This document shows positions 4,741 to 35,839 of a DNA stretch of 64,000 nt, piece after piece. A model generated the notes under the pieces. The model was not told where the DNA came from and made no database searches. It was given only the letters and a program-made list of their open reading frames with translations. The position numbers and the translations under genes were made by a program. Origin of the DNA: Armatimonadota bacterium (GTDB lineage: Bacteria; Armatimonadota; SYMT01); the NCBI GenBank assembly GCA_041690135.1, contig JAWLHY010000001.1:576001-640000 (forward strand), written 5' to 3'. Positions within the stretch are counted from its first letter, which is position 1, and every line of letters starts with the position of its first letter.

Positions 4741-4812
4741 CTCGCGGGTCCGCGCCGTTCCAGTCCACCTTGGTGCCGACGTACTGTGAGGATAGTGGTC
4801 ATTGGCAGTGTC

Positions 4813-7404: not shown

Positions 7405-7420
7405 CCGTCCCCCTGCCTGA

Positions 7421-7582: not shown

Positions 7583-7640
7583 TCCCCTGAGGAAACCCCT
7601 CCACCTAGATGGAACGATGGCATCCGGGATGGGACCCGCT
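7583..7640 (+). repeat. Dispersed island motif copy A (GAGGAAACCCC..TGGAACGAT..GATGGGACCC)
   Basis: Aligns by eye with 25132-25191; core GATGGGACCC at 7628-7637. Confidence 0.7.
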
Positions 7641-7649
7641 GTGAGCGGG

Positions 7650-8174: not shown

Positions 8175-8197
8175 CGTTTCCTCGCATTCTTGAACGG

Positions 8198-13408: not shown

Positions 13409-13420
13409 TGTCGCATGATC

Positions 13421-15154: not shown

Positions 15155-15163
15155 CTCCGCCTC

Positions 15164-19228: not shown

Positions 19229-19358
19229 GGGTCCACCCCTCTCGATGGCCGACTGCCGCATCTGGGGCAGCGTTGGGTAGCGCGTCTGTAGCGTACCGCC
19301 TTTAAGCCAATCAGCCAAGCTGCCCGGCTTTCCCTCCTTCAATTCTCTCGAACTGCGG

Positions 19359-19413
19359 ATTTTTCCTCAATTTGCTGCCGCCATGCGCTATGGGTAGTGG
19401 AAAACGCGCTACA
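19359..19413 (+). promoter_or_regulatory. Divergent control region with TTTTCCTCAATT and AAACGCGCTACA motifs
   Basis: Both motifs recur elsewhere in the island (29925, 30093; 7421). Confidence 0.5.
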
Positions 19414-19426
19414 CAAAGGAGGCAAG

Positions 19427-19873
19427 ATGCAGACGTTGACGAGAGACGGGGTTGGGTATCGCACCCGCGTGATGACGGAACAGAATGCTCAATCGTTTGC
19501 CGCCTGCCTGCGGGCCAACGGCCAGTTCACCAACGTGGAAGTTCACGAGGAGCCACGAGCCAAGGGGGAGCGCCGCTATTACGTCGCCTACCAGCCGTCA
19601 GACCCACAGCAGCAGCAGGTGCTTCTCCAGGGCCACGAGGAGCAGCGCCGCGCCAGAGCCGAGAGTGAGGGCGAGCAATACCTCTTCGTCGAGAATTCGG
19701 ACACTGGCCGCTTCTTCTGGTGCCAGTCGGTCAGCGGCGAAGTGTACGAGGTGACACTCCACAACTGCACCTGCCCGGATGCCGAGTTCCGCTGCCGGAC
19801 GAACGGAATCCGCTGCAAGCACTCCCTGGCGCTGGAGAAGGCCCAAGAACGCGGTGCCGTCCTCACCTTCTGA
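19427..19873 (+). CDS. SWIM zinc-finger protein (mobile element type)
   Basis: YEVTLHNCTCPD...CKH SWIM motif; AAGGAGG RBS before ATG 19427. Confidence 0.85.
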   Translation: MQTLTRDGVGYRTRVMTEQNAQSFAACLRANGQFTNVEVHEEPRAKGERRYYVAYQPSDPQQQQVLLQGHEEQRRARAESEGEQYLFVENSDTGRFFWCQSVSGEVYEVTLHNCTCPDAEFRCRTNGIRCKHSLALEKAQERGAVLTF

Positions 19874-19881
19874 TGCATGAG

Positions 19882-19907
19882 AGGGCCGGGAGTCCGCATC
19901 CGGCCCT
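19882..19907 (+). terminator. GC hairpin after SWIM gene
   Basis: AGGGCCGG-N10-CCGGCCCT; no clear U tract. Confidence 0.3.
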
Positions 19908-20112
19908 AAGCACGCCGAGGAACGCCGATGAAGGACGACGAACTACTCTCGCAGACCACCCGACATCCCACCGACTTCACCCACCGTGTTGACGCGCAAA
20001 TCCAGCGGCTCGACGACCTCTAACAAAGCGTGCAGGTTCACTACAAGTACTTCCCAGCGGGTGTCGTCAATAGCTTCGGGTGGTAGACGGCCATTACAGA
20101 CGGGTACCAACA

Positions 20113-21042
20113 ATGAGTATGCGAATATCAGCGGGCGCGAAGAAAGCAGCGTTTGCGAGCGCAGGTAATCGCTGCGCGTTTCCGAACTGCGATATGACGC
20201 TGGTTACGAGCGATGGTTACCTTCTCGGCGAGATTGCGCACATCGTCTCGATCACTGGGGCTGGCCCACGCTATGACCCGTCAGTCTCTGTGGGTGACCG
20301 CGTTTCTTCAGAGAACCTAATCGCTCTGTGTCCAAACCACCATCGCGTCGTTGATCTGGAACCAGAAGTCTACACGACGGAGTGGTTGCGCAAAGCGCGT
20401 GCCGAGCACGAAGTTCAAGTTGCCAAGTCAACGATCACCATTCCACGGGTGACACCGTTGCTTCCGAAGGAACTGTCCACCTTCGCAAGTGCGCTCCAAA
20501 CCTGGCGAGAAAACCGCAACAATCCAGATGAAGAATTCTGGCAGACGGTGTTTACTGAACATCCACATCTAATTGCCCAGGCAGTTCCTGGTTGCGTTCT
20601 CCAGATTGGGCAGAAGTGCTACGTCGGAGGCAAAGGTATTCACAACTCGGGCGGCAATATCGTTGACTTTCTTTACGTCATCCAATCCACAAGCAACTTG
20701 GTTGTTGTCGAGATAAAAACCCCTACGACCAAACTGATGGGTGGCCTCTACCGGAACAATGCGTATGCAATCTCCGAAAATCTCACAGGTGCGGTAGTTC
20801 AATGCCTCAACTATCGAGATCAGTCCCTCAAGAACTACTATCAGCTTACTGGTGAGTCGGGCGGGGCGTTTAGTGCATTCAACCCTATGTGCCTGATCAT
20901 CGCGGGGAACGTAGCATCGGAGTGTGATGATTTTAATAAGAAGCGTTCGCTTGAACTTTTCCGTTCAACACTCCAGCCGGTAGTGCTCGGCTACGACGAG
21001 CTATTTGCGAAGGTGGAGAACCTGGTTGATATACTCGGGTGA
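20113..21042 (+). CDS. Shedu (SduA/DUF4263) nuclease with N-terminal HNH domain
   Basis: N-term CAFPNC..EIAHI..GPRYD..NLIALCPNHH; C-term EEFWQ, VDFL, VEIKTP, GAVVQ..NY, LELFR, YDEL. Confidence 0.85.
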   Translation: MSMRISAGAKKAAFASAGNRCAFPNCDMTLVTSDGYLLGEIAHIVSITGAGPRYDPSVSVGDRVSSENLIALCPNHHRVVDLEPEVYTTEWLRKARAEHEVQVAKSTITIPRVTPLLPKELSTFASALQTWRENRNNPDEEFWQTVFTEHPHLIAQAVPGCVLQIGQKCYVGGKGIHNSGGNIVDFLYVIQSTSNLVVVEIKTPTTKLMGGLYRNNAYAISENLTGAVVQCLNYRDQSLKNYYQLTGESGGAFSAFNPMCLIIAGNVASECDDFNKKRSLELFRSTLQPVVLGYDELFAKVENLVDILG

Positions 21043-21156
21043 TCGCTCCGTAGCATCTCTGCCGCTGTGTCCGTACCACATTCACCGCGCTGGAGTCTCA
21101 GCGCTCAAGGCCGTGAGGGAGGTGGGGCGGCGGTCCCGCTGAAGACATTCTCAACG

Positions 21157-21202
21157 CAAGCCCCTTTCCTCTCGGTGGATCATCGCAGCGATGGGACCCG
21201 CG
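21157..21202 (+). repeat. Dispersed island motif copy B
   Basis: CAGCGATGGGACCCGC, core 21190-21199, between convergent Shedu and HNH-TPR-PIN genes. Confidence 0.55.
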
Positions 21203-21236
21203 CTAGGGGTGTGAGAGCATAATCATCCCCGCTCTG

Positions 21237-24200
21237 TCAATTGCAGGGGGTGGAGCGCCCAGCATCCTCAGCAGGTGGATACGTTGACGCTGCGATTCCG
21301 AGATCGGGCAGGGCCTCGGTACGAACCAGGCGCTGGAAATCCCTGGGACAGCCGGATGTCAGCCTGCGCACGAGCGCCGTGACGGCCTGAGGCCGTCTTC
21401 CGAAGCTCCGCACTGCTTGGGCCACAGCCCGTGCTATTATGCCTGAGGCGATACGCCGAGTTCTGGCCCAGTCGTAGATCGCTCGGATGCACGCTGCGGC
21501 CTGATCGTCTGTGCTGTTCTCACACAGCAAGTAACTGCAGCGGTAGACGGCGTGCTGCAGCCAGAAGTCGTCCGGGTCATCCTGGTGGGATTGTTCGAGG
21601 ATCGCTTCTATCCACGGCTGGCGGAGGTCCTCACTGCCAGCTACCCAGTCAGTGAACAGGCTCCAGACTACTTCACTGAGCACAGCAGAACTGAGTCGCC
21701 GCTCCACTTCTGGCCGTCCAACTCGGACGAGCATGCTACGCGCCGCCTGGTTGTCGTCTCTCGGATCGGAGCGGATCGTGTCTGCGATTTCATTGCTCCG
21801 CAGCGGAATCGCCGTGTAGGAGTGGGCGAAGAGCAGCCGAATGCAGCGCCAGTACTCTGACTCATCGATCAATCCCTTGTGGCGGGCAGCTTTCAGGAAG
21901 CCGCAGATGCCGAATGCCACGTTTCCTTGCTCCCGCACCAGATACTGAACGACGGCCTCGTCGGTGAACAGCGGAAGTGCGCTCTCCGCACCTGCCCTGG
22001 CGTCCCGCTCTCCTTCGGCAGCCGAATCCTCTTCGACCACGCCCACTCGTTTCACGACCGGGTGGCGAGCCAGAAAGCGGATGATGTGATGCAGTCGGAG
22101 TCGGGCCGACGGTTCCTGCACCCGGATCATACTGTTTCGGACCTGCAGGAAGAAGTGCTCTGGGACAATCACCGCATCGAACATGCGTGGAAGCAGGTAG
22201 AGCTGGCCGAGAAGCTCTAGCGTCAGCAGGGCCGTGAGGTCCACGGTGACCTGGCGTGCCTCAAAGGCGACCGCTGCTTGCAGGAGATCATCGGCGGGCG
22301 TCCCGCCGTGGCATCTGATCTCGTATTCGGCGTCCCGACGCTGGATGATCTGTTCCCAGAGGGAAGGGAGCGGGAGACCGGTTTCCTGTGCCAACCAGGC
22401 AAGCGGCAGAGTTTGGCATCGATAGGTGAGCCAGGCAAGCCGAACCTGCTCATCGTGCTGAGCGCGAAGTTCGGCCATCTGGCGGTCGCGCTCCTGGCGC
22501 GTGGGAGCCTGTTGTAGCCAGATCAGAGGACTGTCAGGCCAGCGCTCCCGAAACTCTCCGAGCCACTTCAACGCCAGGTCCCACCGCCCACCTCCTTGTA
22601 CGGCGCAAATGGCGCTCATGAACATCTCGGGACTCTTGTCCGCTCCCGCAGCCACGGCTGCTTCCGCCCAGCGCACCGCCTCGGGTGCCGCTTCCATCTC
22701 CCGACAGATCGTCGCTAGGTTGAGGGAGGCGAGTGCGTCAACATTACCCAATTCGTGAGCGCGGACAAGCAGCCGATAGGCTTCATCGAGGTTGAAGAGG
22801 TTCCACTCGGTCTGTGCAAGACCCAGCAGGGCGCGGAGACTGTCTGGCTCCGCTTCCAGGAGCTTCCGCCAGCAGCCCGCTGCATCGCGATGCTGATGCA
22901 GTCGAGCCAAGACGGATGCGCGAATGTCCAATAGCTCCGTGTTTGCGAAGCCTTCGGTCGAAGCCGAGTCGAGAATGGTGAGCGCTTCCTGACACCTTCC
23001 GGTATTCACGAGCGCGGCAGCGCAGTTGTGATAGAGGGCAGGGCGGTTGGGTCTACCTGCTTCCTTGTTGCGCAGGATCAGGTGTTGGCTCACCGCCGCG
23101 AACTCTGCCCAGGCATCCTGATCTAGCAGCACCTTGGCTGCGATCTCCAGGACGAGAAGATTGTCAGGCGCGATCTCCTGGGCACGCCGAATGAACGCCA
23201 GCGCTTCCTCTGCCAGCCCATCCTGCAAGCGCCATTGCGCCCGCTCTAGGTACGCCTGCCATGGGTTAGGGTAGGTTTCAATGGCCCTCGCCAGGAGTGC
23301 TTCGGCTTCTTCCCTTTGGGTGGCTTCGCCCTCGCCTTCCGCCGTCTGATGTCGCAGGGCATGCGCAACGAGCACTTCCACGTCCAGCTTCAAGGCGGTC
23401 GGTAGGTCAGGATGGTCTCGTAGCGGCGCGAGGCGCTCAAGTGCTTCGGAGAACCACCGAGCACTAACGAGCGTGAGGCACAGGTTGTAGATCGTGGGAA
23501 GATCGGTTGGGTCCAACTCGACCGCGTGAACGAAGTGGAGACGTGCCGCCTCCATATCCCCCTCGCTCATCTCTACCCGCGCAAGCCCGCGCAGTGCAGG
23601 CACCAGCACCGAGCGAGGCGGTCCAGCCGCTGTAGCCCGCACGTAAGCGTCTCGTGCCGCCGTGATGCTCCCTAGCTCCAGGTGGCAGAGACCGGCATGT
23701 ACCAGGCACCGCGCTGCGGCTGCGGCACGGCCATTCTGGTTATACTGCTCGGCGGAGTACTCGAACTCCGCAGATGCTTCCACCAGGCGGTTCCGGTCGA
23801 TCCTCAGGTCGGAGAGCAGTGTGTTGGCAAGACTATGTGACTCGGGCGAGGTGATGGCTTGGGAGAGGAGCACATCACCCAGAAGTTCATGGGCTTCGGG
23901 TTCACCCGGCTCACGCGCCACGCAGTCCCTGGCGAGAGCTTCTGCCTTGTCCAGTTCGCCTGCCAGACGGTAGGCATTTGTCAGGGCGTAGTCGCGGCGG
24001 ATGTCAACGTCCCCTCGCAGCCGGGCTTGGCCGTCCAGAAGCTCTATCGCTTGCTGCGGCTTTCCCTGGCTGAGGAGCAGGTTCGCTTTCGTGTGGACGG
24101 CCTCGGGCAGCGTAGGATCAGACCTAAGTATCGGCTCCAGAAGGCGCAGCGATTCCTCCACAGGATCGTCACAAAGGTCCCGAGCGATGACGAGATTGGT

Positions 24201-24962
24201 GACGGCGTGGGGGTAGTCGGGACGGAGTCGCAATGCTTCCTCGAATGCTGCCTTGGCCTCCGCCTGCCGCATAAACGCGAGATGACAGCAGCCAAGGCGT
24301 GTCAGGCGAGCATAACGGAGGTCATCTGTCCAACCGTAACCGTCGCCCGTGCCGAGTTGGAGCACAGCCCAAGCAACCTGATACCGCCCCTCTTCGATGT
24401 AGCGCTTCCCGAGGTCAAGCTGCTGACGGATGATTTCGTGAGTCGCCGACCGCTGCGCCGCGACAGCTTCCTGATAGGCGAGACTGATGTTACGGGTGTC
24501 CTGGCGTCCCCACTCCGCATTCTCGTGCAAGAGATCACGAAACGAGCTGAGTTCAGCCGGTCGTCGGTTGACCTCAACCTGGGGCCAGAGCGGACGGACC
24601 CCACCGCCAGCGATCAACGCCTCATGCTGCCCTTTCCATTCGAGTAGCAACTCCTTAGGGAAAACATTCGGGTCTCGGTCGATCATCGTGGCGCAGATGG
24701 TGCAGAGCCAGATAGCGTTCTGGATGCTCATCCGCTCCTGCGATGTCTGGAGAGGATCGTATCGGGGTCCCCCTGGCGAGGCCGCGCAGATGTGTGCGGC
24801 CTCGCCGAGGGTGGTCACCCTCGCTGGATCAGAATGGGGCGCGACCGTGAGCCGTCCGCAGTCCGGATTGCTGCAGGCGTATGCTGCGCGTGCGGCGAGT
24901 ACTCGGCGCACTGACGGGGAGAAGTCGTCGCGTGGCAAGAAAGCACACTCGTGTCCGGACAC
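21237..24962 (-). CDS. HNH-like domain + TPR solenoid + PIN-like domain protein
   Basis: N-term CSNPDC..EAAHICAASPGGPRYD..NAIWLC; many TPR-like repeats; VTVDLTALLTL..FDAVIVP and LFTDE PIN-like motifs. Confidence 0.75.
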   Translation of the reverse strand: MSGHECAFLPRDDFSPSVRRVLAARAAYACSNPDCGRLTVAPHSDPARVTTLGEAAHICAASPGGPRYDPLQTSQERMSIQNAIWLCTICATMIDRDPNVFPKELLLEWKGQHEALIAGGGVRPLWPQVEVNRRPAELSSFRDLLHENAEWGRQDTRNISLAYQEAVAAQRSATHEIIRQQLDLGKRYIEEGRYQVAWAVLQLGTGDGYGWTDDLRYARLTRLGCCHLAFMRQAEAKAAFEEALRLRPDYPHAVTNLVIARDLCDDPVEESLRLLEPILRSDPTLPEAVHTKANLLLSQGKPQQAIELLDGQARLRGDVDIRRDYALTNAYRLAGELDKAEALARDCVAREPGEPEAHELLGDVLLSQAITSPESHSLANTLLSDLRIDRNRLVEASAEFEYSAEQYNQNGRAAAAARCLVHAGLCHLELGSITAARDAYVRATAAGPPRSVLVPALRGLARVEMSEGDMEAARLHFVHAVELDPTDLPTIYNLCLTLVSARWFSEALERLAPLRDHPDLPTALKLDVEVLVAHALRHQTAEGEGEATQREEAEALLARAIETYPNPWQAYLERAQWRLQDGLAEEALAFIRRAQEIAPDNLLVLEIAAKVLLDQDAWAEFAAVSQHLILRNKEAGRPNRPALYHNCAAALVNTGRCQEALTILDSASTEGFANTELLDIRASVLARLHQHRDAAGCWRKLLEAEPDSLRALLGLAQTEWNLFNLDEAYRLLVRAHELGNVDALASLNLATICREMEAAPEAVRWAEAAVAAGADKSPEMFMSAICAVQGGGRWDLALKWLGEFRERWPDSPLIWLQQAPTRQERDRQMAELRAQHDEQVRLAWLTYRCQTLPLAWLAQETGLPLPSLWEQIIQRRDAEYEIRCHGGTPADDLLQAAVAFEARQVTVDLTALLTLELLGQLYLLPRMFDAVIVPEHFFLQVRNSMIRVQEPSARLRLHHIIRFLARHPVVKRVGVVEEDSAAEGERDARAGAESALPLFTDEAVVQYLVREQGNVAFGICGFLKAARHKGLIDESEYWRCIRLLFAHSYTAIPLRSNEIADTIRSDPRDDNQAARSMLVRVGRPEVERRLSSAVLSEVVWSLFTDWVAGSEDLRQPWIEAILEQSHQDDPDDFWLQHAVYRCSYLLCENSTDDQAAACIRAIYDWARTRRIASGIIARAVAQAVRSFGRRPQAVTALVRRLTSGCPRDFQRLVRTEALPDLGIAASTYPPAEDAGRSTPCN

Positions 24963-25131
24963 AGCCTGACTGCGGCGATGGGCTGGCCATACCTTCTGAA
25001 AAGTATCTGCACCAGCATATCAAATCTTCGTTTGCCAGTCAACCGAGATGTCTCCCGGTCCTCAAGGGCTGCGGGCCTCCATAAGTCTCATGCTCTTTCA
25101 GCGGCGTGCACGGCTCCGAGGGGTCATGCTC

Positions 25132-25191
25132 TTGGGAGTCCCGAGGAAACCCCCTCCACCGCGCTGGAACGATCCAGCGATGGGTCCCACG
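25132..25191 (+). repeat. Dispersed island motif copy C
   Basis: GAGGAAACCCCCTCCACCGCGCTGGAACGATCCAGCGATGGGTCCC; core 25179-25188. Confidence 0.7.
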
Positions 25192-25302
25192 CTCGCCGTA
25201 CCCAGGATGCGCCAGGAAGACTGATCGCCGAGGTCTCCCGCCCCGACACTCCGAACAAGGAAGTAGAACAGCCGCTGCGAGTATAAGGCAGGAGGGAGTC
25301 AA

Positions 25303-25470
25303 GTGGAGGAAGCCAGACCGTTACAGGCCGATGCGCTCTTCGTCGCGTGTCGAGAACGTAATTACCCAGAGGTGGCGCGATTGCTGGATGAGGGGCCGTC
25401 ACTGGTGAACTTTCAGTTGCATGCGGGAGACGAGCATCCGCCCTACTGCAGCGGATGCTGGACACCCCAC
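25303..25470 (+). pseudogene. Truncated ankyrin-repeat gene start
   Basis: LFVACRERNYPEVARLLDEGPSLVN...GCWTP, with GGAGGGAG RBS; then runs antisense into the next gene. Confidence 0.45.
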
Positions 25471-25505
25471 TCCGAAGCGGGTGACCGCCGTAGCCCTTCT
25501 AACCT

Positions 25506-26516
25506 CTACCGCACTCTGCCCTGGAGACCATCGCCTGGTGGCGTCTGCGAGTCACAGATTACACGCTGTCGTGCCTCAATCCTCTCCATGACTCTCCCGA
25601 TCCGAGCATCGAGGTCGTCCAGGTCCGGATTGAAGTTTCCGACCTGGCGCAAAGCCTCGTCTCGGGCCAACGGGTCACTAGCAGTCAACTCAACCTCGGT
25701 GCCGCTAATGCAGTCAATGCAGTAACTAGCGAAGCAACGAGGACCCTCGTATCGGTCGCAGAGTAACACGATCAGGCGAAGGCAGCTAAAGTACTCCACC
25801 TCTGCGTAGAGCAACCCCGCCGCTCCATCTCCGAAGATGGTTACCCGATGGCAGATAAGGTCATCAGGAGTCCGGTTTTCGAGTGCCGCGTCGGCGTAGC
25901 CGACATAGGATTCGTCTGCCATGCCTCTGATGAAGGGGATTAGATGCTGGATGATCTCGCGAGACCCACCTCTGAGCATGTACAGGTTCACTGCGGACTT
26001 GCAGACGGCCCTGGCTACTTCCGCTCCTCCGAACGAGATGCGTACCCGCGCAAGGCTGTCCGGGCGGTGCGACTCCTCCACTGCTGCTGTTAAAGCCGCC
26101 TCTACGTCGAGTTGCGGGTATCGTCGCTTCAGACCATTGAGCAGCTTCCGGGCCTCCTCTCTGCTTCGAGCTTGAATGTTGAGGAAGACCTCTTCCCCCT
26201 CCTCGGTGACCTCGACATGTGGGCGGGCACGGTGGCCTACGCCGTCCGTCTCCACCAGTACGGTCTCCCCCGTATCCAGTAGTTCGAATCGTAAAGGAGG
26301 GGTCTCGCCACGTTGCCGGGAGACATCTAGCAGATGCGATAGGGGGTGGAGTTGACGACATAGCTCGGCATCGATCCGCTCTCCGAACTCGCAGTTGCAC
26401 GAGTGGCATAATAGTTTATCGGAGCGAAGCCTGCCGCCGATTGCGTTAGCGATCACGTGCTCCCGTGAGTAGTTCTCCCCAGTAATCTGTGACTCGCAGA
26501 CGTAGCAAGTGCCCAT
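25506..26516 (-). CDS. HNH endonuclease family protein
   Basis: MGTCYVC...SREHVIANAIGG...LLCHSCNCEFG..ID. Confidence 0.8.
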   Translation of the reverse strand: MGTCYVCESQITGENYSREHVIANAIGGRLRSDKLLCHSCNCEFGERIDAELCRQLHPLSHLLDVSRQRGETPPLRFELLDTGETVLVETDGVGHRARPHVEVTEEGEEVFLNIQARSREEARKLLNGLKRRYPQLDVEAALTAAVEESHRPDSLARVRISFGGAEVARAVCKSAVNLYMLRGGSREIIQHLIPFIRGMADESYVGYADAALENRTPDDLICHRVTIFGDGAAGLLYAEVEYFSCLRLIVLLCDRYEGPRCFASYCIDCISGTEVELTASDPLARDEALRQVGNFNPDLDDLDARIGRVMERIEARQRVICDSQTPPGDGLQGRVR

Positions 26517-26544
26517 CGTTCTTCCCGTAGTCAGTGTGACCGGC

Positions 26545-27372
26545 TCAAGGGCGAAGGAGACTCCCGGCCCGCCTCGCCAGTGCAAGTAGGTCGGACTTGA
26601 AGGCCGAATCCGGCAGTGCGTGGATTACCTCTTCGTAGGTCACCCAGTGAAGATGGAGGCGTTCCAGGCATCCCGCCAAGTCCAGAGGACAGTGGCGGCG
26701 GATGGCCCCTGTTGCGAGCGCCAAGTCCTCCAGTATTGCCTGCGGGTTCCCTTTATACTCCCAGAACTTGCAGCCGTAGAAGCGGGTCCTGGGATGATCC
26801 CGGAAGAGGCGAGGGGTTAGCAGGACGACATGAACCGCGTCTGGGACGGCGGTGACCCGCGTTGTTGTCCGCGTTTCTAAACCGCAGAATGTGAGGGCCG
26901 TTTCGATCACCCGCACCAACTGGTTCCGTGTCGGGTCGTGTGTGGTGCGGGAGGCCATGTCAGAGTAGAGCTTCGCCTCCACAAAGGCTATCCAGGACGG
27001 CTCTCCAGCCGGGCGGAGCGCGAACTGGATGCCACCCGCTTTGTCAGGACGCAGGGCGATGTCTCCTGTCGCGAGGTCGATGTGGCTGTTGTACTCCTTC
27101 GTCCGAGCAGGATAGGCTAGCGCTTCCAGCCAGATCGTCTCGGTGGGCGTCGGAGGTGGGGCACCGAGGAGGACGGACGCCAGCCGGGTCGGGCCGTCCG
27201 GCAGGCAGGCGTAGCCCCAGGCGCAGAGGTAGGTCCATATCTGCTCGTCCTCAACAGGTGCGAGACCGTGCTCGACGTTCGCGAGGGCCGCTCTTAAGGC
27301 AGTCTCGCTCAGGCTACCCTTCCGAAGGCTGTTCGGGAGGGGTTGCCCCAACGTGGAATCCAGAAGGGACAT
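26545..27372 (-). CDS. Putative PD-(D/E)XK nuclease
   Basis: SHIDLATG...FVEAKLYSD...HDPTRNQLVR; start moved to ATG 27372. Confidence 0.6.
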   Translation of the reverse strand: MSLLDSTLGQPLPNSLRKGSLSETALRAALANVEHGLAPVEDEQIWTYLCAWGYACLPDGPTRLASVLLGAPPPTPTETIWLEALAYPARTKEYNSHIDLATGDIALRPDKAGGIQFALRPAGEPSWIAFVEAKLYSDMASRTTHDPTRNQLVRVIETALTFCGLETRTTTRVTAVPDAVHVVLLTPRLFRDHPRTRFYGCKFWEYKGNPQAILEDLALATGAIRRHCPLDLAGCLERLHLHWVTYEEVIHALPDSAFKSDLLALARRAGSLLRP

Positions 27373-27442
27373 GGTGAACCTACACAACGCACGTGCCCGA
27401 AGTGGCTGCCAGAGGGACTTAGCCTCCCTGCAATCCTGCCTA

Positions 27443-28270
27443 TCAGGCGTCCGGGAGAGGGTTTGGTGCTCGTGGGAACACCCTCTCGAAGTCCCAGTAA
27501 TCTTCAGCGCCCACGAAGCACTCGGACAGCCAGACTTCATCCACCTGTGGCGGTGGCGGGGAGTCCGTCAGAATGGCTGTCCAGTCATCCTCTCCCAGGT
27601 AGTAGTTGCCGATCCTCTCTAGGAGCAGCACGCGCCTCGTGTCCTCGTAGCCCAGGAACTTCCGAGAGCACGCATCAAAGAAACGCATCAACTCGGGTGC
27701 CAAGCCCGCCCGCGCCTCGGCACAGGCTTCGGGTGTCAGATAATCGATGGACGACGACCAGTTGACGATCAGGCCCGAAGTTGGCTCATCCTCCTCTCGC
27801 TCAACTTCGTGCTGGCGGCGCAGTCGCCAGCCCCAACGCCCAGAGACGCCCTGGAAGGTAGCACCCGGCTCCAGGCTGCTGAACTTCACCAATACACACC
27901 GACTCACCTCGTCAGCGAAGGCGAGGAGTTCACGCCGCGACCCCTGGATCAGGTCAGGCAACTGTAGCTGAAAGGGAGCCTGCCGCAATGCCGCGCCCAC
28001 CTGGTCGAAAATACGGCCCGCGACCAGGTGATCGTTCTGATGCCGCTGGGCGTAGTCCGCAGGCCAGATGAGGCTCTTCCGCTCAATGGTCAGCCTCGCC
28101 CCGCTGGACGGATCGACATACAGCGCCTCAGGCTGTGGTCTGTCCGAGGGCGTAAGGTCAAGACAGGCTTCGTGGCGGTATCCTGTGCCTTCTGCGCTAT
28201 TGAGATGCTCTACAAACGGCTCCGTGTTTCGGCGCTCGCACCCTCCCGAGTGTGGCAGGCAGGCCATCAT
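27443..28270 (-). CDS. Hypothetical protein, possible nuclease fold
   Basis: AAGGAG RBS; PQPEALY...LTIERKS resembles a variant PD-(D/E)XK motif. Confidence 0.55.
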   Translation of the reverse strand: MMACLPHSGGCERRNTEPFVEHLNSAEGTGYRHEACLDLTPSDRPQPEALYVDPSSGARLTIERKSLIWPADYAQRHQNDHLVAGRIFDQVGAALRQAPFQLQLPDLIQGSRRELLAFADEVSRCVLVKFSSLEPGATFQGVSGRWGWRLRRQHEVEREEDEPTSGLIVNWSSSIDYLTPEACAEARAGLAPELMRFFDACSRKFLGYEDTRRVLLLERIGNYYLGEDDWTAILTDSPPPPQVDEVWLSECFVGAEDYWDFERVFPRAPNPLPDA

Positions 28271-28294
28271 GCATCTCCTTGTCGTTCTAAGCAG

Positions 28295-29005
28295 TCATGC
28301 CCCTTGCGACTGGTGCTTCCACTGAAGCCAGCGATCCAGGAGGTTGCGCACGAGTGAACGCGCATCATCGAGGCTCATCGGGTTCTTCGGGGGCTGAGTG
28401 CTCTCCTTGCCGTGACGGGCGACATCCCCGAGGGCACCAACGCTGTTTGACGTGTGCTTGAAGTTCTTGATCACTGCCGCAGAAGCCCAGTCCCCTTCAC
28501 GGATGGCCTTCCCGGCATCACCCTCAATCACCTCGAAGACCACGTAGAGGTCTCGCCAGTCAAGATCACCCGACCCGAAGATTCGCAGGGCCTTGGCAAC
28601 CTCTGGGTCGTGGGTGAGACCAAACAGCATCTGCAGGTCCGGCTTCGCTGCAGGGGCGTCCGTGCCGCCGTAGAGTTCAGCGGTCATGTTGGAACGGATG
28701 CGTGCGTTCCCGCTGAACGTCACATAGTTGTGCCTGACGGTCTCACTCTCAATGAGGGTGACGCCGCCGACCGCAACCCGTTCGAAGCCGTTGAGAAGCG
28801 TCTTTCCCAGCCCATTTAAGGACTGTACGATTGCCTCGGCCTTCTCGCGCACCTCGCCCGCATCAGTGAGCGCCTCGAACTCCCTAGCCCGCAGGACGTA
28901 ACCTCCGTCCTGCTCCGTCACGTTCAGGTCATCCGACGTAAACGCAGCAGCGAGTGCTTGCAGATCGAACTTGTGGCCTTCTAGCCGTACCCGCCATTCA
29001 GTCAT
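28295..29005 (-). CDS. Hypothetical protein, possibly HEPN-like helical C-terminus
   Basis: WRDLYVVFEVIE...FKHTSNS...ARHG; co-oriented with three downstream genes. Confidence 0.6.
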   Translation of the reverse strand: MTEWRVRLEGHKFDLQALAAAFTSDDLNVTEQDGGYVLRAREFEALTDAGEVREKAEAIVQSLNGLGKTLLNGFERVAVGGVTLIESETVRHNYVTFSGNARIRSNMTAELYGGTDAPAAKPDLQMLFGLTHDPEVAKALRIFGSGDLDWRDLYVVFEVIEGDAGKAIREGDWASAAVIKNFKHTSNSVGALGDVARHGKESTQPPKNPMSLDDARSLVRNLLDRWLQWKHQSQGA

Positions 29006-29153
29006 CCCTGACCACTCTCTCTGACCCTACCGATGTCCGGTAACCAGCCTGGCAGCGATTGTACCACTTTCGCGGTCGTCCGTGTATGGGGCCTGCGACC
29101 TGCGGGGCCGTCTACCCCGTAGAAGTTCCGTCCCGTGTAGGAGCGCAGCGCCT

Positions 29154-29840
29154 TCATGCCGCCTCCTCGTCGCCCCACACGATCCGGCACGCCTGCTCAC
29201 CATTGAGCCTATGCGGTGGCCGGCAGAGAGCCTCCGTCAGTGCATCGAGTTTCTCTCTGTGCGCCCGAATGATAGTTCGAGCCAGGTTCTCTGCCGCGTG
29301 GTAGAACTCCCACAGCCTCGACTCTCGGGGATCGTCTGCGTATATCTCGTCCCACTCTGGGAAGCCCAGCATCTCGCAGATAACGGCGATTGCACTCTCT
29401 GTGTCTCCTGTTGGGTCCAGGCGCTCCCGCTTCGAGAGGCGTCCGTATACCTCCCGCACAGCGGCCCTGCCCGCCGCTGTGATGCAGACACGGTCCAACT
29501 CGCTCTGGTAGTAGCTGTGGCAAATGCCCATTTCGCCGTTCTCGTCCCCCTCACGGAAGGGTGAGATCCAAACCTCCTCAATGTAACACTCTGGGAGGAT
29601 GAGGGCCACCAAAGCGTGCCCGCTCTCGTGGACCGCCCTCCTCCGCAGCTTGTGCCTGGAACATCGACGGGGTTGGGCGTTTACCTCCGCCAGGGGAACC
29701 TCTCTCTGGTCTGCTTTCGCCGCGTGTCCCGCAAATTGCCGCTTTCCTCTTGACTGCGGGGACTGGCCCTCTGGCTCAAAGCGGACACGGCTCTTGGTCA
29801 TGAGGTCGTCGCGCAGTGACGACTGGCTAGCGCTCTCCAT
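29154..29840 (-). CDS. Stand-alone M41/FtsH-like zinc peptidase domain
   Basis: RRAVHESGHALVA (HExxH), AAGRAA, LDALTEAL; no AAA domain. Confidence 0.7.
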   Translation of the reverse strand: MESASQSSLRDDLMTKSRVRFEPEGQSPQSRGKRQFAGHAAKADQREVPLAEVNAQPRRCSRHKLRRRAVHESGHALVALILPECYIEEVWISPFREGDENGEMGICHSYYQSELDRVCITAAGRAAVREVYGRLSKRERLDPTGDTESAIAVICEMLGFPEWDEIYADDPRESRLWEFYHAAENLARTIIRAHREKLDALTEALCRPPHRLNGEQACRIVWGDEEAA

Positions 29841-29924
29841 TCAGCCCTCCTCTGGGTTTTGTAACAGCTGGGTGCCTGCGGCCTATCCGCGAGCACCCGC
29901 TATATAAAGTTGGGGACAGCAAAG

Positions 29925-30104
29925 AATTGAGGAAAAATGCCACGGGGGCTTCCAAGCTGTGCCACCCCCACGGGCCTGCGCTACGAGAAGTCCCAAGGAA
30001 GCGGTTGCGTGGAGAGGAAGGGTTGGCGTCCGATGGGACCCGTTGTCTCGTGAAAGACCAGCCACGCTAGGGCGAAGGATCAGGCGAGGGAGTTTTCCTC
30101 AATT
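29925..30104. promoter_or_regulatory. Inverted TTTTCCTCAATT pair enclosing motif copy D, between divergent genes
   Basis: AATTGAGGAAAA 29925-29936, GATGGGACCC 30032-30041, TTTTCCTCAATT 30093-30104. Confidence 0.6.
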
Positions 30105-30125
30105 TCCCAATCCACATAGCCTTCT

Positions 30126-30911
30126 GTGGTGAGAGTCAGCGGTAAGGGCCGCTGCCGGAAGAGGGGCCGTAGCTCGTATGGGCCGCGTTCGCTGTTCCAG
30201 ACCTTCTGCGCCGTTGAGGAGAGGAGACATCCCCATGCCAGCGAACTCATCTTCATCGATCTTCGCGTCACGCCAGAGAAACCCGAGGCGTGCTACACCG
30301 TGCACCTGGTGGGCCTGCCTCACGAGTACTTCGAGCACTCCAGCCGGAAGGCCGTACCTGGACGAAGACGAGAGTACGAGACGGTGCCCTTTCCAGACGC
30401 GGCCCTCAACCCGGCCCCGACTCGCATCTGCACCGAGGATCAGCCCGAGTGGGGGTCCTGCCCCTGGTGTGCTGCTGACTACGTGACTCGGCGGGTGTTC
30501 GCGGTGAACTGTCTGGACCGGGCGGATGGCAGGCTGAAGGTGCTCCGCAAGGGCATTACCGTCTTCAAGGCGTTCGCCGAGTGGGAGAACGAGCAGGAGG
30601 AGCGGGGCAATCCACTGCCAGCTCTGGGAGGGCCTCACGCGCCTGACGTGACGATCTGCGCCCGCTATGACGTGAAGGTGGTGGGGAACGTCCGGTATGA
30701 GATCACGTTCCACTCGGCTCTGTCACTGATCACGACTGAGCATGCCGATGTGATCCGGGCTGCAGGCACTCCTACTCCAGAGGAAGCCGAAGCCATCTAC
30801 CAGGCTAATCCTGAACTCCGAGCATTCCTGGTCTGGTTCCCCAGCGGCTTCCCCTTGGAGAAGGTGTTCAAGCCGATGCCCCTTGCTTGCAGAGGAGGCC
30901 TGGAGAAGTAA
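30126..30911 (+). CDS. gp32-like ssDNA-binding protein (possible frameshift at start)
   Basis: EH...RIC...CPWC...FAVNCLDRADGRLKVL..G..VF...PDVTI...RYEI pattern; best RBS+ATG (30221/30235) is out of frame. Confidence 0.55.
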   Translation: MVRVSGKGRCRKRGRSSYGPRSLFQTFCAVEERRHPHASELIFIDLRVTPEKPEACYTVHLVGLPHEYFEHSSRKAVPGRRREYETVPFPDAALNPAPTRICTEDQPEWGSCPWCAADYVTRRVFAVNCLDRADGRLKVLRKGITVFKAFAEWENEQEERGNPLPALGGPHAPDVTICARYDVKVVGNVRYEITFHSALSLITTEHADVIRAAGTPTPEEAEAIYQANPELRAFLVWFPSGFPLEKVFKPMPLACRGGLEK

Positions 30912-31029
30912 GTCTCCAGGAGAGAGGGGATTTAACTTAGGGTGTAACGGTTGCTGAAGCCGCTGGAACACCACTGGAGAATGTGCCAGACGACCGTTGG
31001 GCAGGCAACCCAATTGGTGAGGTGAGTCT

Positions 31030-31140
31030 ATGGTGACAGTCTTGGGCCACCACGCACAAGGCGAGGATCGGTGGTATGTCGCCTACCGCCACCGCAATCC
31101 TGAAGCGCAGGCCGCCCTCATCCAGCGGGCGCAGGAGCAT
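31030..31140 (+). pseudogene. Fragment of a paralog of the SWIM protein at 19427
   Basis: AQGEDRWYVAYRHRNPEAQAALIQ vs AKGERRYYVAYQPSDPQQQQVLLQ. Confidence 0.6.
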
Positions 31141-31426
31141 CCTCGCCTGGCACTACATTGCTGCCGCTGAACTTGTGCTTCGTTTGAGTGGGGCACTCGA
31201 CCGAGTAGAGTAGCTCAGTAGTAGCCAAACGGGTGACGAAGATGAATCTCGCCTCCTGCTCGCTGACCCGCAAATCTCCTTCTTGACTGCTTATATAACA
31301 ATGAAAGAAAATCTGTGCTGGAAGGGAGCTGTACTCTCTCTTCACTGACGCCTGGTACGTCGTCCAGAGAGCTGCGTCCACGTCTGCCAGAACTTGATCA
31401 AGCGCGAGTCGCCACTTCTCATCCAT
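31118..31426 (-). pseudogene. Truncated hypothetical (nuclease-like) gene
   Basis: RVSEQEARFIF...YSVECPT...FSG, then runs antisense into the SWIM fragment. Confidence 0.45.
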
Positions 31427-31465
31427 TGAATACGATTCCCGAGCCTGGGCGCAACGTCGAGGCCC

Positions 31466-32089
31466 TCACGTCAGCCAGGCGCGAATATCCTGGAACAGCA
31501 GATCAACCTCATCGACCGAGTACGCGCTGTAACCGGGATCAGGTATTAGTACGCAGATGTGGTCCACGATGCACTTCCCGTCTAGGCAGCACAAACCGTC
31601 GAAGGCAACCCTGTTTTGGTGCAAGTAGTTGAAGAGCGCGGCGAACCTGGCCTGGTCACCGTCCTTCTTCTTGACCAGCACCCCCTCCAAGAAAACCTCG
31701 GCGAACTCGTTGAACCGCAGTACCGACTTCTGCTCAATGGCGTAGAACCGGACTCCGTTCGTGAAGCAGTAGTCAGGCGATTTGCCTCTTGATAGGCCAG
31801 GTACTGGTATACGGTAGGCGCATTGGCGTATCTGCGGTGCCTGTGCGATGAGGACCTCTGAAGCGGCCTTCATGCCCTGCTTGATGCAACCGACCAGACC
31901 TTGCTTGTCTCCTCCTCGCCTTGAGACCCCCTCTTCCCGCCGCAGAGCATCCCGGACCGCACCATAGAACGCTCTGGAATACTCCCCCGCGTTGTTACTG
32001 TTGGCTGCGGCAACAGCCTTCTCGGTCAAACCCGGCCAGGACGCAAGCGCCACTGCGCACCTCTCATTCTCGGAAGCTGCGGCATCCAC
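31466..32089 (-). CDS. Putative PD-(D/E)XK restriction-like nuclease
   Basis: KSPDYCF...YAIEQKS. Confidence 0.55.
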   Translation of the reverse strand: MDAAASENERCAVALASWPGLTEKAVAAANSNNAGEYSRAFYGAVRDALRREEGVSRRGGDKQGLVGCIKQGMKAASEVLIAQAPQIRQCAYRIPVPGLSRGKSPDYCFTNGVRFYAIEQKSVLRFNEFAEVFLEGVLVKKKDGDQARFAALFNYLHQNRVAFDGLCCLDGKCIVDHICVLIPDPGYSAYSVDEVDLLFQDIRAWLT

Positions 32090-32346
32090 ATGCCGCTTGT
32101 CTGGGAGGTGGCGGCGCTGGGGAGACCGGTCCGACCCACCCTAACCCATTCATTCACAGTAGTGTTCCATATAGAGGCGTCACCACCTTCGCTCGCTTGA
32201 TCGTCGTATGGTAGTTAAGAGAGCAAGCGTGGCCAGCGGTGGGCATCGATGCTGGCCGGGCTTAACGGGAGATAGGTATTGATGTAGAATACAGACCCTA
32301 TCTAGGCGCACGGATGGCCGACTCCTGGGCAGGCGGTAGGGAGGGG

Positions 32347-33675
32347 ATGACGGTGAGCAAGAGGATCATAGACGAGTTCTTGAGCGAGGAGGCAATGCGG
32401 CAGCGCCAGCGGATGTTTGATTTGGCGCGTCCCGCGCTCGACCTCGCCCTTCAGAACCAGCATCTCTTCGACTTGGCGCTACAGAATACGCACATCTATG
32501 ATCTCGCCCATCAGTTCCAGGTCAGTGAAGCGGCCCGGCTGGCGGACATCAGCCGTAGCGTTCTGGAGAACTCTGCCATGCAGCAAGCGATGCAGCAGTT
32601 CTCCCAGGTTGACCGCCTCGCACCGTACCGTGAGCACTTGCTTGCGCTGGATGTCTACAAGGAGAGTTTGGCCGGACGGGCAATGGTCGATCTCGCCGAG
32701 ACAGCGCGGCGCCAATGGGCCACCTGGGAGCAACTCACCCGGCCCTTCGAATCCGTTGTGGCCACCATCAAGGCAGTAGAGGTGGCGCAGTCTCAGCGGG
32801 TAATGCAGGAGGCCCTGAGGGCCTTCAGCGCACCCGCGCTGAGCGCGTTCGCACCGAGGTTGCCCGAGCTAACATCCCTGGCGGAGTCCATTAGGACACC
32901 GTGGATAGACGCCGCTAGGGTAGGACAGTCGTTTGAGGCCCTGGCAGGCTTAACGACCATCGGACGAGCGATCTCCCACCGCCCCTTTGAGCAGGACAGC
33001 AGTCGGGCGCTCCGCTCATTGTTGGGCGACTGGACGGAGGTTCGTTCCCGCCCGCGTGTGCCGCGCCGACCCGCCGCTCGTGTCGAGCTATACCGCCAGC
33101 TTGGTATGGATGCGCGGCTCGTGGATGTCCCAGACGATGCCTTTGATGAGGTTCTGGCCGTTACCGGCATCGTAGTTCCCGAGATGTTCACGCCCGCAAT
33201 TGAGGTGGTGGAGACGCCCGAAGGTGAGGACACCGAGGTAAAGCGGCGGATGCTGGCGGCGTATGACCTGCTATTCAGTCTCGAAACGGCACTCCGTGAC
33301 TACGTGCAGAAGATCATGAGCGACCGGTACGGCGCAAACTGGGAGACCCAGCGTGTGCCGGGCGCGGTTCTCAATGCCTGGCGTGAAAAGCGGAGAGCGG
33401 GGCAAGACAGGGGTGAAGGCACTTACCCGCTGGTGGCCTACGCCGACTTCAGCGACTACTTGCCCATCATTATCCGCAAGGACAACTGGAATGAAGTGTT
33501 CAGCCAGGTTTTCCAGAATCAGCCGGACCTCCAAGTGGCCTTTCAGCGGCTTCAACCGCTGCGCATCGCCACGATGCACGCGAGACCCATCACGAAGGCC
33601 GACCTGCTGCTTATCACCTCTGAGGTCCATCGCATCTTTGAGGCAATCGGTTACTTAAATAGCAGGCAGGCGTAA
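32347..33675 (+). CDS. Swt1-like HEPN domain protein
   Basis: C-term LFSLETALRDYV...ADFSDY..II..DNWNEVF...LRIATMHAR (RxxxxH); helical N-terminus. Confidence 0.8.
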   Translation: MTVSKRIIDEFLSEEAMRQRQRMFDLARPALDLALQNQHLFDLALQNTHIYDLAHQFQVSEAARLADISRSVLENSAMQQAMQQFSQVDRLAPYREHLLALDVYKESLAGRAMVDLAETARRQWATWEQLTRPFESVVATIKAVEVAQSQRVMQEALRAFSAPALSAFAPRLPELTSLAESIRTPWIDAARVGQSFEALAGLTTIGRAISHRPFEQDSSRALRSLLGDWTEVRSRPRVPRRPAARVELYRQLGMDARLVDVPDDAFDEVLAVTGIVVPEMFTPAIEVVETPEGEDTEVKRRMLAAYDLLFSLETALRDYVQKIMSDRYGANWETQRVPGAVLNAWREKRRAGQDRGEGTYPLVAYADFSDYLPIIIRKDNWNEVFSQVFQNQPDLQVAFQRLQPLRIATMHARPITKADLLLITSEVHRIFEAIGYLNSRQA

Positions 33676-33864
33676 CCCAGTGTGGGTCGGCGATGCTGCC
33701 TGCCTGACGCCGCTACGTTGCCTACGCCGCTACTGCGAGAGCCGTGTGCCGCTTCGGGCGGCATACCTCGACCCAAGCTTCCAACCATACGGGTTACTCC
33801 ACGACAAGCAGACAAACATAAGTGTGCTTCCCCGAGGCACGCTGAGCTACAATTAGGTAGTCTA

Positions 33865-33904
33865 AGGAGCCTGTCGCGGGCGTGTGTAGGAGCCTGTCGC
33901 GGGC
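33865..33904 (+). repeat. 17-bp direct repeat x2 (AGGAGCCTGTCGCGGGC)
   Basis: Copies at 33865-33881 and 33888-33904; inverted relative to tRNA sequence at 33991-34005. Confidence 0.85.
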
Positions 33905-33938
33905 AATGAGGGGCTGTAGGAAGGACTACAGATAGGCA

Positions 33939-34026
33939 CGGAGAGGGCGGGGTGAACCCGCCAAACGAGTGAAAAATGACGGTCTGTTTTCGAGACAGGC
34001 TCCTTCAACCACTCGGACACCTCTCC
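33939..34026 (-). tRNA. tRNA-Ser(CGA) with canonical 5' half and atypical 3' half
   Basis: GGAGAGGTGTCCGAGTGGTTGAAGGAGCCTGTCTCGAAAACAG; acceptor GGAGAGG/CCTCTCC+G; T loop only TTCAC and no paired variable arm. Confidence 0.8.
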
Positions 34027-34071: not shown

Positions 34072-34100
34072 ATGTTAACACGCGCGGTCGGGGGTGTCAA
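34072..34100 (-). promoter_or_regulatory. Sigma70-type promoter for the tRNA
   Basis: Minus strand TTGACA-17 nt-TAACAT with TG extension. Confidence 0.75.
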
Positions 34101-34102: not shown

Positions 34103-34270
34103 GGGGGTTAGGGGCCAGGGGTTGGGGATTAGGGGCTCGGAAGGATGAAGGATGAAGGCGGAAGGATGAGCCCCGCCCCCGCTTCTACGCTCGTCACTGG
34201 GGCTCCCGTCCACAGTCCCACCCCAGCCCCCAACCCCTGGCCCCGCCTTCTGCCTTCATCCTTCCCATCC
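34103..34270. repeat. Degenerate heptamer repeats with downstream complements
   Basis: GGGGTTA/GGGGCCA/GGGGTTG and AAGGATG runs, followed by CCCAGCC/CCCAACC/CCTGGCC and CTTCATCC. Confidence 0.6.
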
Positions 34271-34393
34271 TGTCCATCCTGTTTCCGCCGGTTCCCCCCT
34301 TCCGCGCCCATCCGCGTGTTCCGTGGGCTATCACTTTCAGGAGGAGTGGTAGCCCGGGGAGCGGAATGGGTGGGGAGGAAGGAGGGTGCGCCG

Positions 34394-35839
34394 ATGCATT
34401 CGCGGTTCGGGATCTTGTTGGCGGCGGGTTTGTGCCTGGTGGGCGTCGCCACGGCGGGGCGGACGGCTCCGAAGCCGAAGCAGCCCAATATCGTCTTCAT
34501 CCTGGCGGACGACCTCGGTTGGAGCGACGTCGGTTACCACAGGAGCGAGATCCGGACGCCCCACATCGACCGCCTGGCCGCGGCGGGCGCGAAGCTGGAG
34601 CAGTTCTACGTGATGCCGGTCTGCACCCCCACGCGGGCCGCGCTGCTCACCGGCCGCTACCCCATGCGCTACGGGCTGCAGTCCGGGGTCTGCCGGCCGT
34701 GGTCGGACTGGGGGCTGCCGGTTACGGAGCGGACTCTCGCCCAGGAGCTGAAGGAGGCGGGTTACCGGACCGCGATAACGGGCAAGTGGCACCTGGGGTC
34801 GGTCCATCCGGCGTTCCTGCCCACGGCTCGTGGGTTCGACCACCAGCACGGCTGCTACAACGGCGCCATCGACTACTTCACCCACGACCGCGACGGCGGC
34901 CATGATTGGCACCGCAACGACCGCGCTCTCCACCAGGAGGGCTACAGCACCGACCTGATCGGGCAGGAAGCGGTCAACGTGATCGAAGGCCACTCCGGGG
35001 ATCGACCCTTTTTCCTCTATGTGCCGTTCAACGCGCCGCACTCTCCCCTCCAGGCGCCGCAGGAAGCGATTCGTCCTTACGCCGATTTGAAGCCGCCGGC
35101 GCGCCGCCGCTACGCCGCCATGGTCACCCGCATGGATGAGGCGATCGGCCGGATTGCCGAGGCGCTGGAGCGGAAGGGGCTCTCCAAGGACACCCTGCTG
35201 GTCTTCTCCAGCGACAATGGCGGGCCCCTCAACCTGGGCGCGACCAATCGCCCGCTGCGTGCCGGCAAGTTCTCCTTCTACGAGGGGGGAGTCCGCGCCG
35301 TTGCCTTCGCTACCTGGCCGGGGACTCTCCGGGCCGGAACGGTCGTGAAGGAGCCGCTGCATATGGTCGACTGGTTCCCCACGCTGCTCCGCCTGGCCGG
35401 CAAGAGCCCACAGCCGGAGGCCGGGCTCGACGGGCGGGATATGGCGTCTACTCTTCTCCGGGGCGCCAAATCCCCTCACGCCGAGATCCTGCTGAACGTG
35501 GAGCCGCACCGGGGCGCTCTGCGCCGCGGCGACTGGAAGCTGGTGGTGGAGGGCCCGCTCCCCGGCGCCTACGATTCCCAGCGAGCGCTGGCGGTGCCGC
35601 GGAAGCTGGAGCTCTATAACATCGCCCAGGACCCTACCGAGAAGACGAACCTCGCCACGAAGGAGCCACGGAAGGTCCGGGAGTTGCTCACCCACCTGAT
35701 CGGTTACGCCCGCGAGGCACTCCCACCCTTCGGCGGCAAAGGCGATGAACAACCCTCCAACTGGAAAGCGCCCCGGGTGTACGGGGAGCCGGACCCGGTC
35801 TCACCGCAAACCCAGTGCGGGTCCGAACGGGGGCGCTGA
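34394..35839 (+). CDS. Arylsulfatase (formylglycine-dependent), secreted
   Basis: Signal peptide; PNIVFILADDLG, CTPTRAALLTGR, GKWHLG, SDNGG. Confidence 0.93.
   Translation: MHSRFGILLAAGLCLVGVATAGRTAPKPKQPNIVFILADDLGWSDVGYHRSEIRTPHIDRLAAAGAKLEQFYVMPVCTPTRAALLTGRYPMRYGLQSGVCRPWSDWGLPVTERTLAQELKEAGYRTAITGKWHLGSVHPAFLPTARGFDHQHGCYNGAIDYFTHDRDGGHDWHRNDRALHQEGYSTDLIGQEAVNVIEGHSGDRPFFLYVPFNAPHSPLQAPQEAIRPYADLKPPARRRYAAMVTRMDEAIGRIAEALERKGLSKDTLLVFSSDNGGPLNLGATNRPLRAGKFSFYEGGVRAVAFATWPGTLRAGTVVKEPLHMVDWFPTLLRLAGKSPQPEAGLDGRDMASTLLRGAKSPHAEILLNVEPHRGALRRGDWKLVVEGPLPGAYDSQRALAVPRKLELYNIAQDPTEKTNLATKEPRKVRELLTHLIGYAREALPPFGGKGDEQPSNWKAPRVYGEPDPVSPQTQCGSERGR

Follow-up and report, generated by a model that had tools for sequence, protein, structure and literature searches.

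The window analyzed here, a 64,000-nucleotide stretch of the genome of an Armatimonadota bacterium (positions 576001 to 640000 of contig C1), comprises the right-hand part of a genomic island and the chromosomal genes that follow it. Between the two, on the minus strand, lies an 88-nt stretch that resembles a tRNA-Ser(CGA) gene (Table 1). The island cargo includes PDC-M26A (2.9e-157) and PDC-M26B, a NERD-kinase-STAND protein, partner proteins with matches to mad6, mad7, and mad8 of MADS and to DndH/HerA, Shedu SduA (1.5e-101), HNH nucleases, and an HEPN_Swt1 protein, all assigned with Pfam and PADLOC. Housekeeping-type genes lie to the right of the 88-nt stretch, among them those for a sulfatase, GFO/IDH/MocA oxidoreductases, and arginyl-tRNA synthetase, together with an S9 peptidase gene. 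The interval between the 88-nt stretch and a second, intact copy of the tRNA gene farther to the left has a GC content of 60.5%, compared with 65.1% and 66.2% in the two 40-kb flanks and 65.1% for the genome as a whole, and GC content is back to ~65% at the sulfatase gene.

Table 1. Features of the window, with the basis for each assignment
Feature	Position in window	Strand	Basis
Right-hand 34 kb of the ~49.3-kb island, which continues 15.3 kb farther left, to C1 560679	1..33983	.	Pfam, PADLOC, GC
DndH/HerA/mad8-like ATPase, 1736 aa, inside the island	8198..13408	-	
mad7-like protein, inside the island	13421..15154	-	7e-16
NERD-kinase-STAND protein, mad6/PglW-like, inside the island	15164..19342	-	5.7e-66
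Last island gene, HEPN_Swt1 domain, convergent with transcription from the tRNA promoter	32314..33675	+	Pfam, PADLOC
Two copies of the 17-nt repeat AGGAGCCTGTCGCGGGC (plus strand), each with GACAGGCTCC; candidate integrase-binding (arm) sites of the integrase-distal arm	33865..33904	-	
tRNA-Ser(CGA)-like pseudogene (predicted), very probably the integrase-distal hybrid att junction	33939..34026	-	Alignment, ARAGORN, Rfam, fold
Degenerate 3' half, probably element-borne (variable arm replaced, T loop shorter by 2 nt)	33939..33983	-	Alignment
43-nt direct repeat, tRNA-Ser(CGA) nt 1-43, probably the host-derived 5' half	33984..34026	-	43/43 versus C1 560636-560678
Probable native tRNA-Ser(CGA) promoter, TTGACA-N17-TAACAT, extended -10 TG	34072..34100	-	10/12 matches; relatives' upstream homology
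Sulfatase (as listed), first chromosomal gene past the island	34145..35839	+	Pfam Sulfatase 1.1e-59, domain from residue 114

Within the island, the block from 8198 to 19342 looks like a partial or variant MADS-type defense system. Just outside the island, past the tRNA promoter and before the sulfatase domain, short repeats that are G-rich or of the GGATGAA type make up a long, imperfect inverted repeat (window 34101-34313); its arms (34111-34172 and 34221-34270) are 85 to 88% complementary, and pieces of 30 to 45 nt recur at 87 to 100% identity in several other genomes of the phylum (G005, G010, and G016). The listed start of the sulfatase gene probably falls inside this repeat and is hence likely wrong, the true start probably lying downstream. 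Farther into the chromosomal part of the window, the Acido-Lenti-1 RNA of Rfam is matched at 43088-43134 (plus strand, 40.6 bits) and 37241-37287 (minus strand, 39.0 bits), against a gathering score of 37; each match is a pair of hairpins downstream of genes, with a terminator-like look. The two matches hint at a host of the Acidobacteriota/Lentisphaerota type.

The 88-nt tRNA-Ser(CGA)-like stretch

Read on the minus strand and aligned to the genome's intact tRNA-Ser(cga), the 88-nt stretch falls into two unequal parts. Its first 43 nt match the intact gene without a difference (blastn E = 1e-17 against the 9.1-Mb genome) and span the 5' strand of the acceptor stem, the D arm, and the anticodon stem-loop with the anticodon CGA, ending in ..CTCGAAAACAG. 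Upstream of +1 the two copies agree at just 6 of 20 nt, so the identity begins at tRNA position 1. At its other end it stops exactly at window position 33984, where an earlier, sequence-only reading of this DNA had placed a crossover.

Beyond that point the sequence diverges. An A replaces the G at position 43, creating a C27-A43 mismatch; the ~22 nt that follow, ACCGTCATTTTTCACTCGTTTG, form no variable-arm helix and are unpaired in the predicted fold; and the T arm reads GCGGG-TTCAC-CCCGC, with a loop of 5 nt versus 7 nt (TTCGAAT) in the intact gene. The T stem, the acceptor stem (GGAGAGG/CCTCTCC), and the discriminator G73 are kept, and the base after the discriminator is identical too. The sequence-only reading had described the 88-nt length, the C-A mismatch, the unpaired variable region, the 5-nt T loop, the acceptor stem, and the G, each of which we found on reading and aligning the stretch. 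In global alignment to the true 3' half, the divergent part scores z = 4.9, and the score is reached by 0 of 2000 shuffles. The tRNA resemblance of both halves is far above chance, and the alignment indicates that the 3' half is clearly tRNA-derived.

ARAGORN, a check which that reading had proposed, found the intact copy elsewhere and did not call the 88-nt stretch a tRNA, with or without its flanks. Rfam returned no tRNA match for it either at the gathering score or at E <= 10 on 401 bases, and its minimum-energy fold is not a cloverleaf. The intact tRNA-Ser(cga) folds into a canonical class II cloverleaf. Judged as a class II tRNA-Ser, then, the 88-nt stretch has neither a recognized cloverleaf nor the long variable-arm helix and 7-nt T loop of such a molecule. 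The variable arm is an identity element for SerRS. From its sequence, the stretch is best described as a pseudogene, whose product may be transcribed but should be unable to fold or be charged like tRNA-Ser; in annotation it should carry the label of an att junction or pseudogene, not of a tRNA.

Several other resemblances were considered and set aside. The best local Rfam match, sX4 (24.6 bits versus a gathering score of 70), merely reflects the tRNA-like 5' part and was dismissed. A possible 7-bp pairing between the D loop and the replaced variable region is compatible with chance (~0.16 by a rough count of possible pairs). A 14-nt identity at the 3' end, taken as a second att site of the usual type, was ruled out because the 5' strand of the T stem is also kept.

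The far end of the island

The single intact tRNA-Ser(cga) that ARAGORN detects in the whole genome lies at C1 c[560592,560678], 15.3 kb to the left of the window and 49.3 kb from the 88-nt stretch, with tRNA-Cys and then a gene of the glucose/sorbosone-dehydrogenase type downstream. What the two copies have in common is exactly nt 1-43, at 100% identity and in direct orientation; the fragment (C1 610026 to 609984) and the intact gene are both on the minus strand, with the fragment upstream in the sense of the tRNA. These 43 nt are the sole long repeat between the island ends. On the island side of the intact gene, an open frame of 355 aa encodes a tyrosine integrase (L001 4751-5818; PF00589 Phage_integrase, 2.9e-33). 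The integrase and tRNA genes are divergent, on opposite strands, with ~90 nt separating the start of the integrase gene from the 5' end of the tRNA; the ATG at L001 4772, behind AGGAG, is the likely start of the integrase gene. The 88-nt stretch pinpoints the right-hand edge of a 49-kb defense island, whose other edge and integrase are outside the window. The sequence-only reading had proposed a leftward search for a recombinase, and one does lie there. It had also placed the true 3' half of the tRNA gene at the far end of the island; that half does lie leftward, but within a complete, canonical tRNA-Ser(cga) and not as a displaced fragment.

The arrangement has the signature used by Islander: on one replicon, a full tDNA with a co-oriented fragment of its cognate end, a tyrosine integrase within the interval, and a 5' fragment upstream of the tDNA, over an interval (49.3 kb) within the range of 2 to 200 kb. 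It does not have the usual 3'-restoring layout, in that the shared block is nt 1-43 and the intact gene has its 5' end toward int. It is highly probable, in our view, that a tyrosine integrase inserted a ~49.3-kb defense island into tRNA-Ser(CGA) in mirror orientation and that the integrase-distal junction of this island is the 88-nt stretch.

An alternative is that the 88-nt stretch is a working, imperfectly repaired tRNA-Ser(CGA) and that the far end of the island holds a mere displaced 3' fragment. The preserved acceptor stem, G73, overall length, and strong promoter would suit a working gene. Its rejection by ARAGORN and Rfam would not, nor would a structure without the long variable-arm helix, the 7-nt T loop, or a cloverleaf fold, and a canonical, intact tRNA-Ser(cga) is present at the far end; we regard a working gene as very improbable. 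Because a complete canonical gene stands at the far end, the stretch is better understood as a by-product junction, in which a displaced 5' fragment meets leftover attP sequence, than as an ill-repaired tRNA. The imperfect restoration proposed in the sequence-only reading is accordingly not what the locus contains: the gene appears perfectly rebuilt at the integrase-proximal junction, by the 5' half and promoter of the element.

Short motifs occur just inside both ends of the island. The 10-nt motif GACAGGCTCC is the reverse complement of a D-stem/anticodon-stem segment of the tRNA itself, GGAGCCTGTC. Two copies lie just inside the right end (window 33866-33898), each within a copy of the 17-nt repeat, and three lie just inside the left end (L001 4721-4818), against 0.27 and 0.13 per source expected by chance. 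The whole 9.1-Mb genome contains 29 copies, of which 7 are at the two island ends. Half-site-like repeats flanking a core are the usual appearance of attP arms, and the GACAGGCTCC clusters are candidate arm sites to which the integrase may bind.

These observations also bear on the possibility that the 88-nt stretch is a decayed segmental duplicate of the tRNA, unrelated to site-specific integration, and that the integrase is adjacent by coincidence. The genome does hold other short tRNA fragments of unclear origin, such as a 26-nt piece of the 5' end of a tRNA-Ala. Here, however, the identity begins exactly at tRNA +1 and stops in the anticodon stem, the common motifs cluster just inside both ends, the drop in GC content and the defense cargo occupy exactly the interval between the copies, and homologous integrases are tRNA-associated in all 30 of the loci examined. 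We consider a chance duplicate extremely unlikely.

Host side, element side, and the proposed integration

As a test of which side is host, we compared the 100 nt upstream of each copy with the regions upstream of tRNA-Ser(cga) in six other genomes of the family. All six relatives have this tRNA; its first 44 nt are identical to those of the present genome in five of them and differ at three bases in the sixth (L019), and its variable arms vary among the relatives with compensating changes. The region upstream of the pseudogene copy aligns to three of the six relatives (z = 4.1, 3.4, and 5.8), with which it shares AATTGACA-N17-TAAC(A/G)T. The region upstream of the intact copy aligns to none of the six (z <= 1.1), and the remaining three relatives show no upstream similarity to either copy. 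The downstream flanks gave no significant signal in either direction against the same six genomes (best z, 2.5). A small counterpoint is that the 3 nt before +1 are CGG in three of the six relatives and at the intact copy and CCT at the pseudogene copy.

Given this upstream homology to three of the six relatives, and its absence at the intact copy, the promoter and 5' half at the pseudogene copy appear to be those of the host. All DNA between the two direct 43-nt repeats is assigned to the element, including the degenerate 3' half and the region upstream of the intact copy. Like the pseudogene copy, the intact tRNA-Ser(CGA) is preceded by a sigma-70-like promoter (TTGACC-17-TAGGAT, 9/12 matches; L001 4760 to 4732). 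On present sequence evidence, the intact gene would be driven by element DNA, and the host promoter would now precede the pseudogene. Two claims of the sequence-only reading hold up here: that the stretch is a chimera of a native 5' half and an element-derived 3' half, with nt 1-43 equal to the intact gene and the 3' half degenerate, and that its promoter is native (TTGACA-17-TAACAT, in a region resembling that of three of six family relatives, z = 3.4 to 5.8).

We propose that the attP of a circular element carried tRNA nt 1-43 in exact copy behind a promoter, followed by a degenerate 3' half, and that it would have recombined site specifically with the chromosomal tRNA-Ser(CGA) within the shared 43 nt. 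The crossover most likely fell in the anticodon loop, between the CCTGT/ACAGG half-sites. At the integrase-proximal junction, the promoter and 5' half of the element would then be joined to the 3' half of the host, yielding the intact gene with tRNA-Cys next to it; at the integrase-distal junction, the promoter and 5' half of the host would be joined to the degenerate 3' half of the element, yielding the 88-nt stretch. The gene would be perfectly restored because the element brings an exact 5' half (nt 1-43) together with its own promoter-like site. The 3' half presumably decayed while it was in attP, where rebuilding the gene does not need it. That the 5' half is intact at 43/43 positions while the variable arm is replaced argues for decay in attP, not for neutral decay in the chromosome.

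No terminator-like site was found between the HEPN_Swt1 gene and the pseudogene, nor in the 2 kb after the pseudogene. The strong host promoter is still joined to a tRNA-like leader in which the acceptor stem and a T-like hairpin are preserved, and with no such site for 2 kb, transcription from this promoter would run antisense into the HEPN_Swt1 gene. One might imagine that the captured promoter serves the island by producing either a tRNA-like RNA, after processing, or an antisense transcript, with which the island would tune its defense or toxin gene, an idea that we consider quite improbable. If it were true, the host promoter would be there solely in the integrated state, and the decayed 3' half would be kept for processing of the RNase P or RNase Z type.

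Related integrases, known systems, and other tRNA remnants

We searched 401 genomes of the phylum for relatives of the integrase and examined the best 30 loci returned (35 to 100% identity, this locus included). A complete tRNA stands immediately upstream of int and in the same direction in 23 of these 30, and a 3' tRNA part does so in another 5, for a total of 28/30 with the usual layout. A 'sublocation' scheme for this usual integration of the anticodon-loop type, in which the element restores the 3' part of the gene, was reportedly set out by Williams in 2002. The tRNA and int are divergent in the remaining two of the best 30 loci, the one described here and one in G371, whose integrase is 35% identical. 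G371 has two copies of a complete tRNA-Thr(tgt), identical over 105 nt that extend from position -2 to 28 nt beyond the 3' end; the divergent int is faced by one of them, and a shared 15-nt motif lies inside both presumed ends. By its sequence, G371 appears to be another mirror case, independent of the present one, with an element that carries a whole tRNA.

A whole tRNA in G371 means that the degenerate 3' half described here can be read as what decay has left of a complete copy that attP once carried, which is a better reading than the 'mimic' 3' half of the sequence-only description. It also lends some weight to a variant history, with the same island and the same mirror orientation, in which the element brought a complete, working tRNA-Ser, integration gave two working genes, and the distal gene decayed later, in the chromosome. 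The G371 element, of the mirror type, does carry a complete tRNA-Thr, and the pseudogene 3' half clearly comes from the 3' half of a tRNA-Ser. Neutral decay should nevertheless strike both halves, and here nt 1-43 match at 43/43 positions, whereas the 3' half has a replaced variable arm and a shortened T loop; we think later decay in the chromosome unlikely. Set beside the 28/30 loci with the usual layout, the two mirror cases suggest how mirror sites may arise: the quasi-symmetric core of the anticodon stem would flip, attP would capture an entire tRNA gene, and whatever lies downstream of the crossover would then decay, a scheme drawn from these two cases.

A paralogous integrase in the same genome, 49% identical, shows the classical layout downstream of a tRNA-Arg(tcg) on C6. 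Fragments of the 3' part of that tRNA-Arg(tcg) (nt 17-74 and 25-70) occur on C23, and between the tRNA and int lie three copies of the tRNA's own AGAGCACCAGTCT, which copy the anticodon-stem half-site. The tRNA-Ser(CGA) island has in common with this paralogue and the other usual cases (28/30 loci) a related integrase, a repeat over the anticodon stem-loop, and half-site arm repeats. It differs in that the tRNA is flipped relative to int and the shared block reaches from the crossover to the tRNA's 5' end, not to its 3' end, so that the element must also carry a promoter.

Searches for an island-free allele gave no counterpart. The DNA of the right flank, searched in 41 relatives, matched paralogous sulfatases alone (<=69% identity); the flanking proteins, searched by tblastn against the tRNA-Ser loci of relatives, gave no match; and a metagenome scan with the flanking sulfatase returned a best relative 56% identical. 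No further copy of the element came to light: no integrase relative was found in genome_contigs or viral_contigs, and the exact 26-nt junction pattern had 0 matches in genome_contigs. Across the 401 phylum genomes, a 35-nt pattern of the 5' half (<=2 mismatches) matched in seven family genomes alone, and an extra, non-tRNA copy of it occurred in this genome alone.

The configuration itself has precedent. In its treatment of tDNA fragments, the Islander paper (Hudson, Lau and Williams 2015, PMC4383910) accepts a '5' fragment upstream of the tDNA' and counts 159 islands with a 5' fragment versus 3760 with a 3' fragment (3919 total). On those counts, the mirror mode is a known minority of ~4%. 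The present island shares with this 5'-fragment class an intact tDNA, a co-oriented 5' fragment upstream, and a tyrosine integrase between them, within 2 to 200 kb; it differs in that the fragment here continues into a recognizable degenerate 3' half, which gives it the look of a full-length, 88-nt tRNA. The island is one of this known class, ordinary in kind and tidy in detail, and cleanly illustrates the minority mirror mode: both the 5' half of the tRNA and its promoter must come from the element.

Att remnants that resemble tRNA genes, and are mistaken for them, are also discussed by van der Gulik et al. (2023, PMC9897764), where one example is PYG1 of Pyrococcus yayanosii, located between a partial and a complete tRNA-Gln. 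Such remnants, like the one here, pair a partial tRNA at one end of the island with a complete tRNA at the opposite end, and their junction can mimic a whole tRNA; the present junction, in contrast, is accepted by neither ARAGORN nor Rfam and consists of a 5'-half remnant followed by a decayed 3' relic. The dusA-specific integrases (PMC4482086) likewise target the 5' end of a host gene, but theirs is a protein-coding gene and they appear to belong to a different integrase family. In a literature search that was not aimed at excluding one, we found no description of a full-length, decayed pseudo-tRNA at a 5'-type junction.

Other tRNA genes of this genome (G000) have partial or extra copies nearby. 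For tRNA-Ser(tga) (C2 905113-905197), a 54-nt 3' fragment (nt 32-85, 100%) lies 23 kb downstream, at C2 882014-882067, which points to a second island of the usual type. Just past the real tRNA-Leu(gag) gene, C3 888531-889087 holds two extra, near-full-length copies in tandem, ~450 nt apart; nt 2-26 and 31-85 are identical, nt 27-30 alone differ, and ARAGORN does not call them. These copies may be stacked att remnants. The 26-nt piece of tRNA-Ala mentioned above is an exact copy of the 5' end of tRNA-Ala(cgc), 52 nt upstream of the gene (C1 168103-168128), and is possibly the scar of a lost element of the 5' type. Finally, the 10 tRNA genes packed into 1.2 kb at C4 52411-53600 form a tight cluster, as is typical of tRNA arrays carried by a phage or another element.
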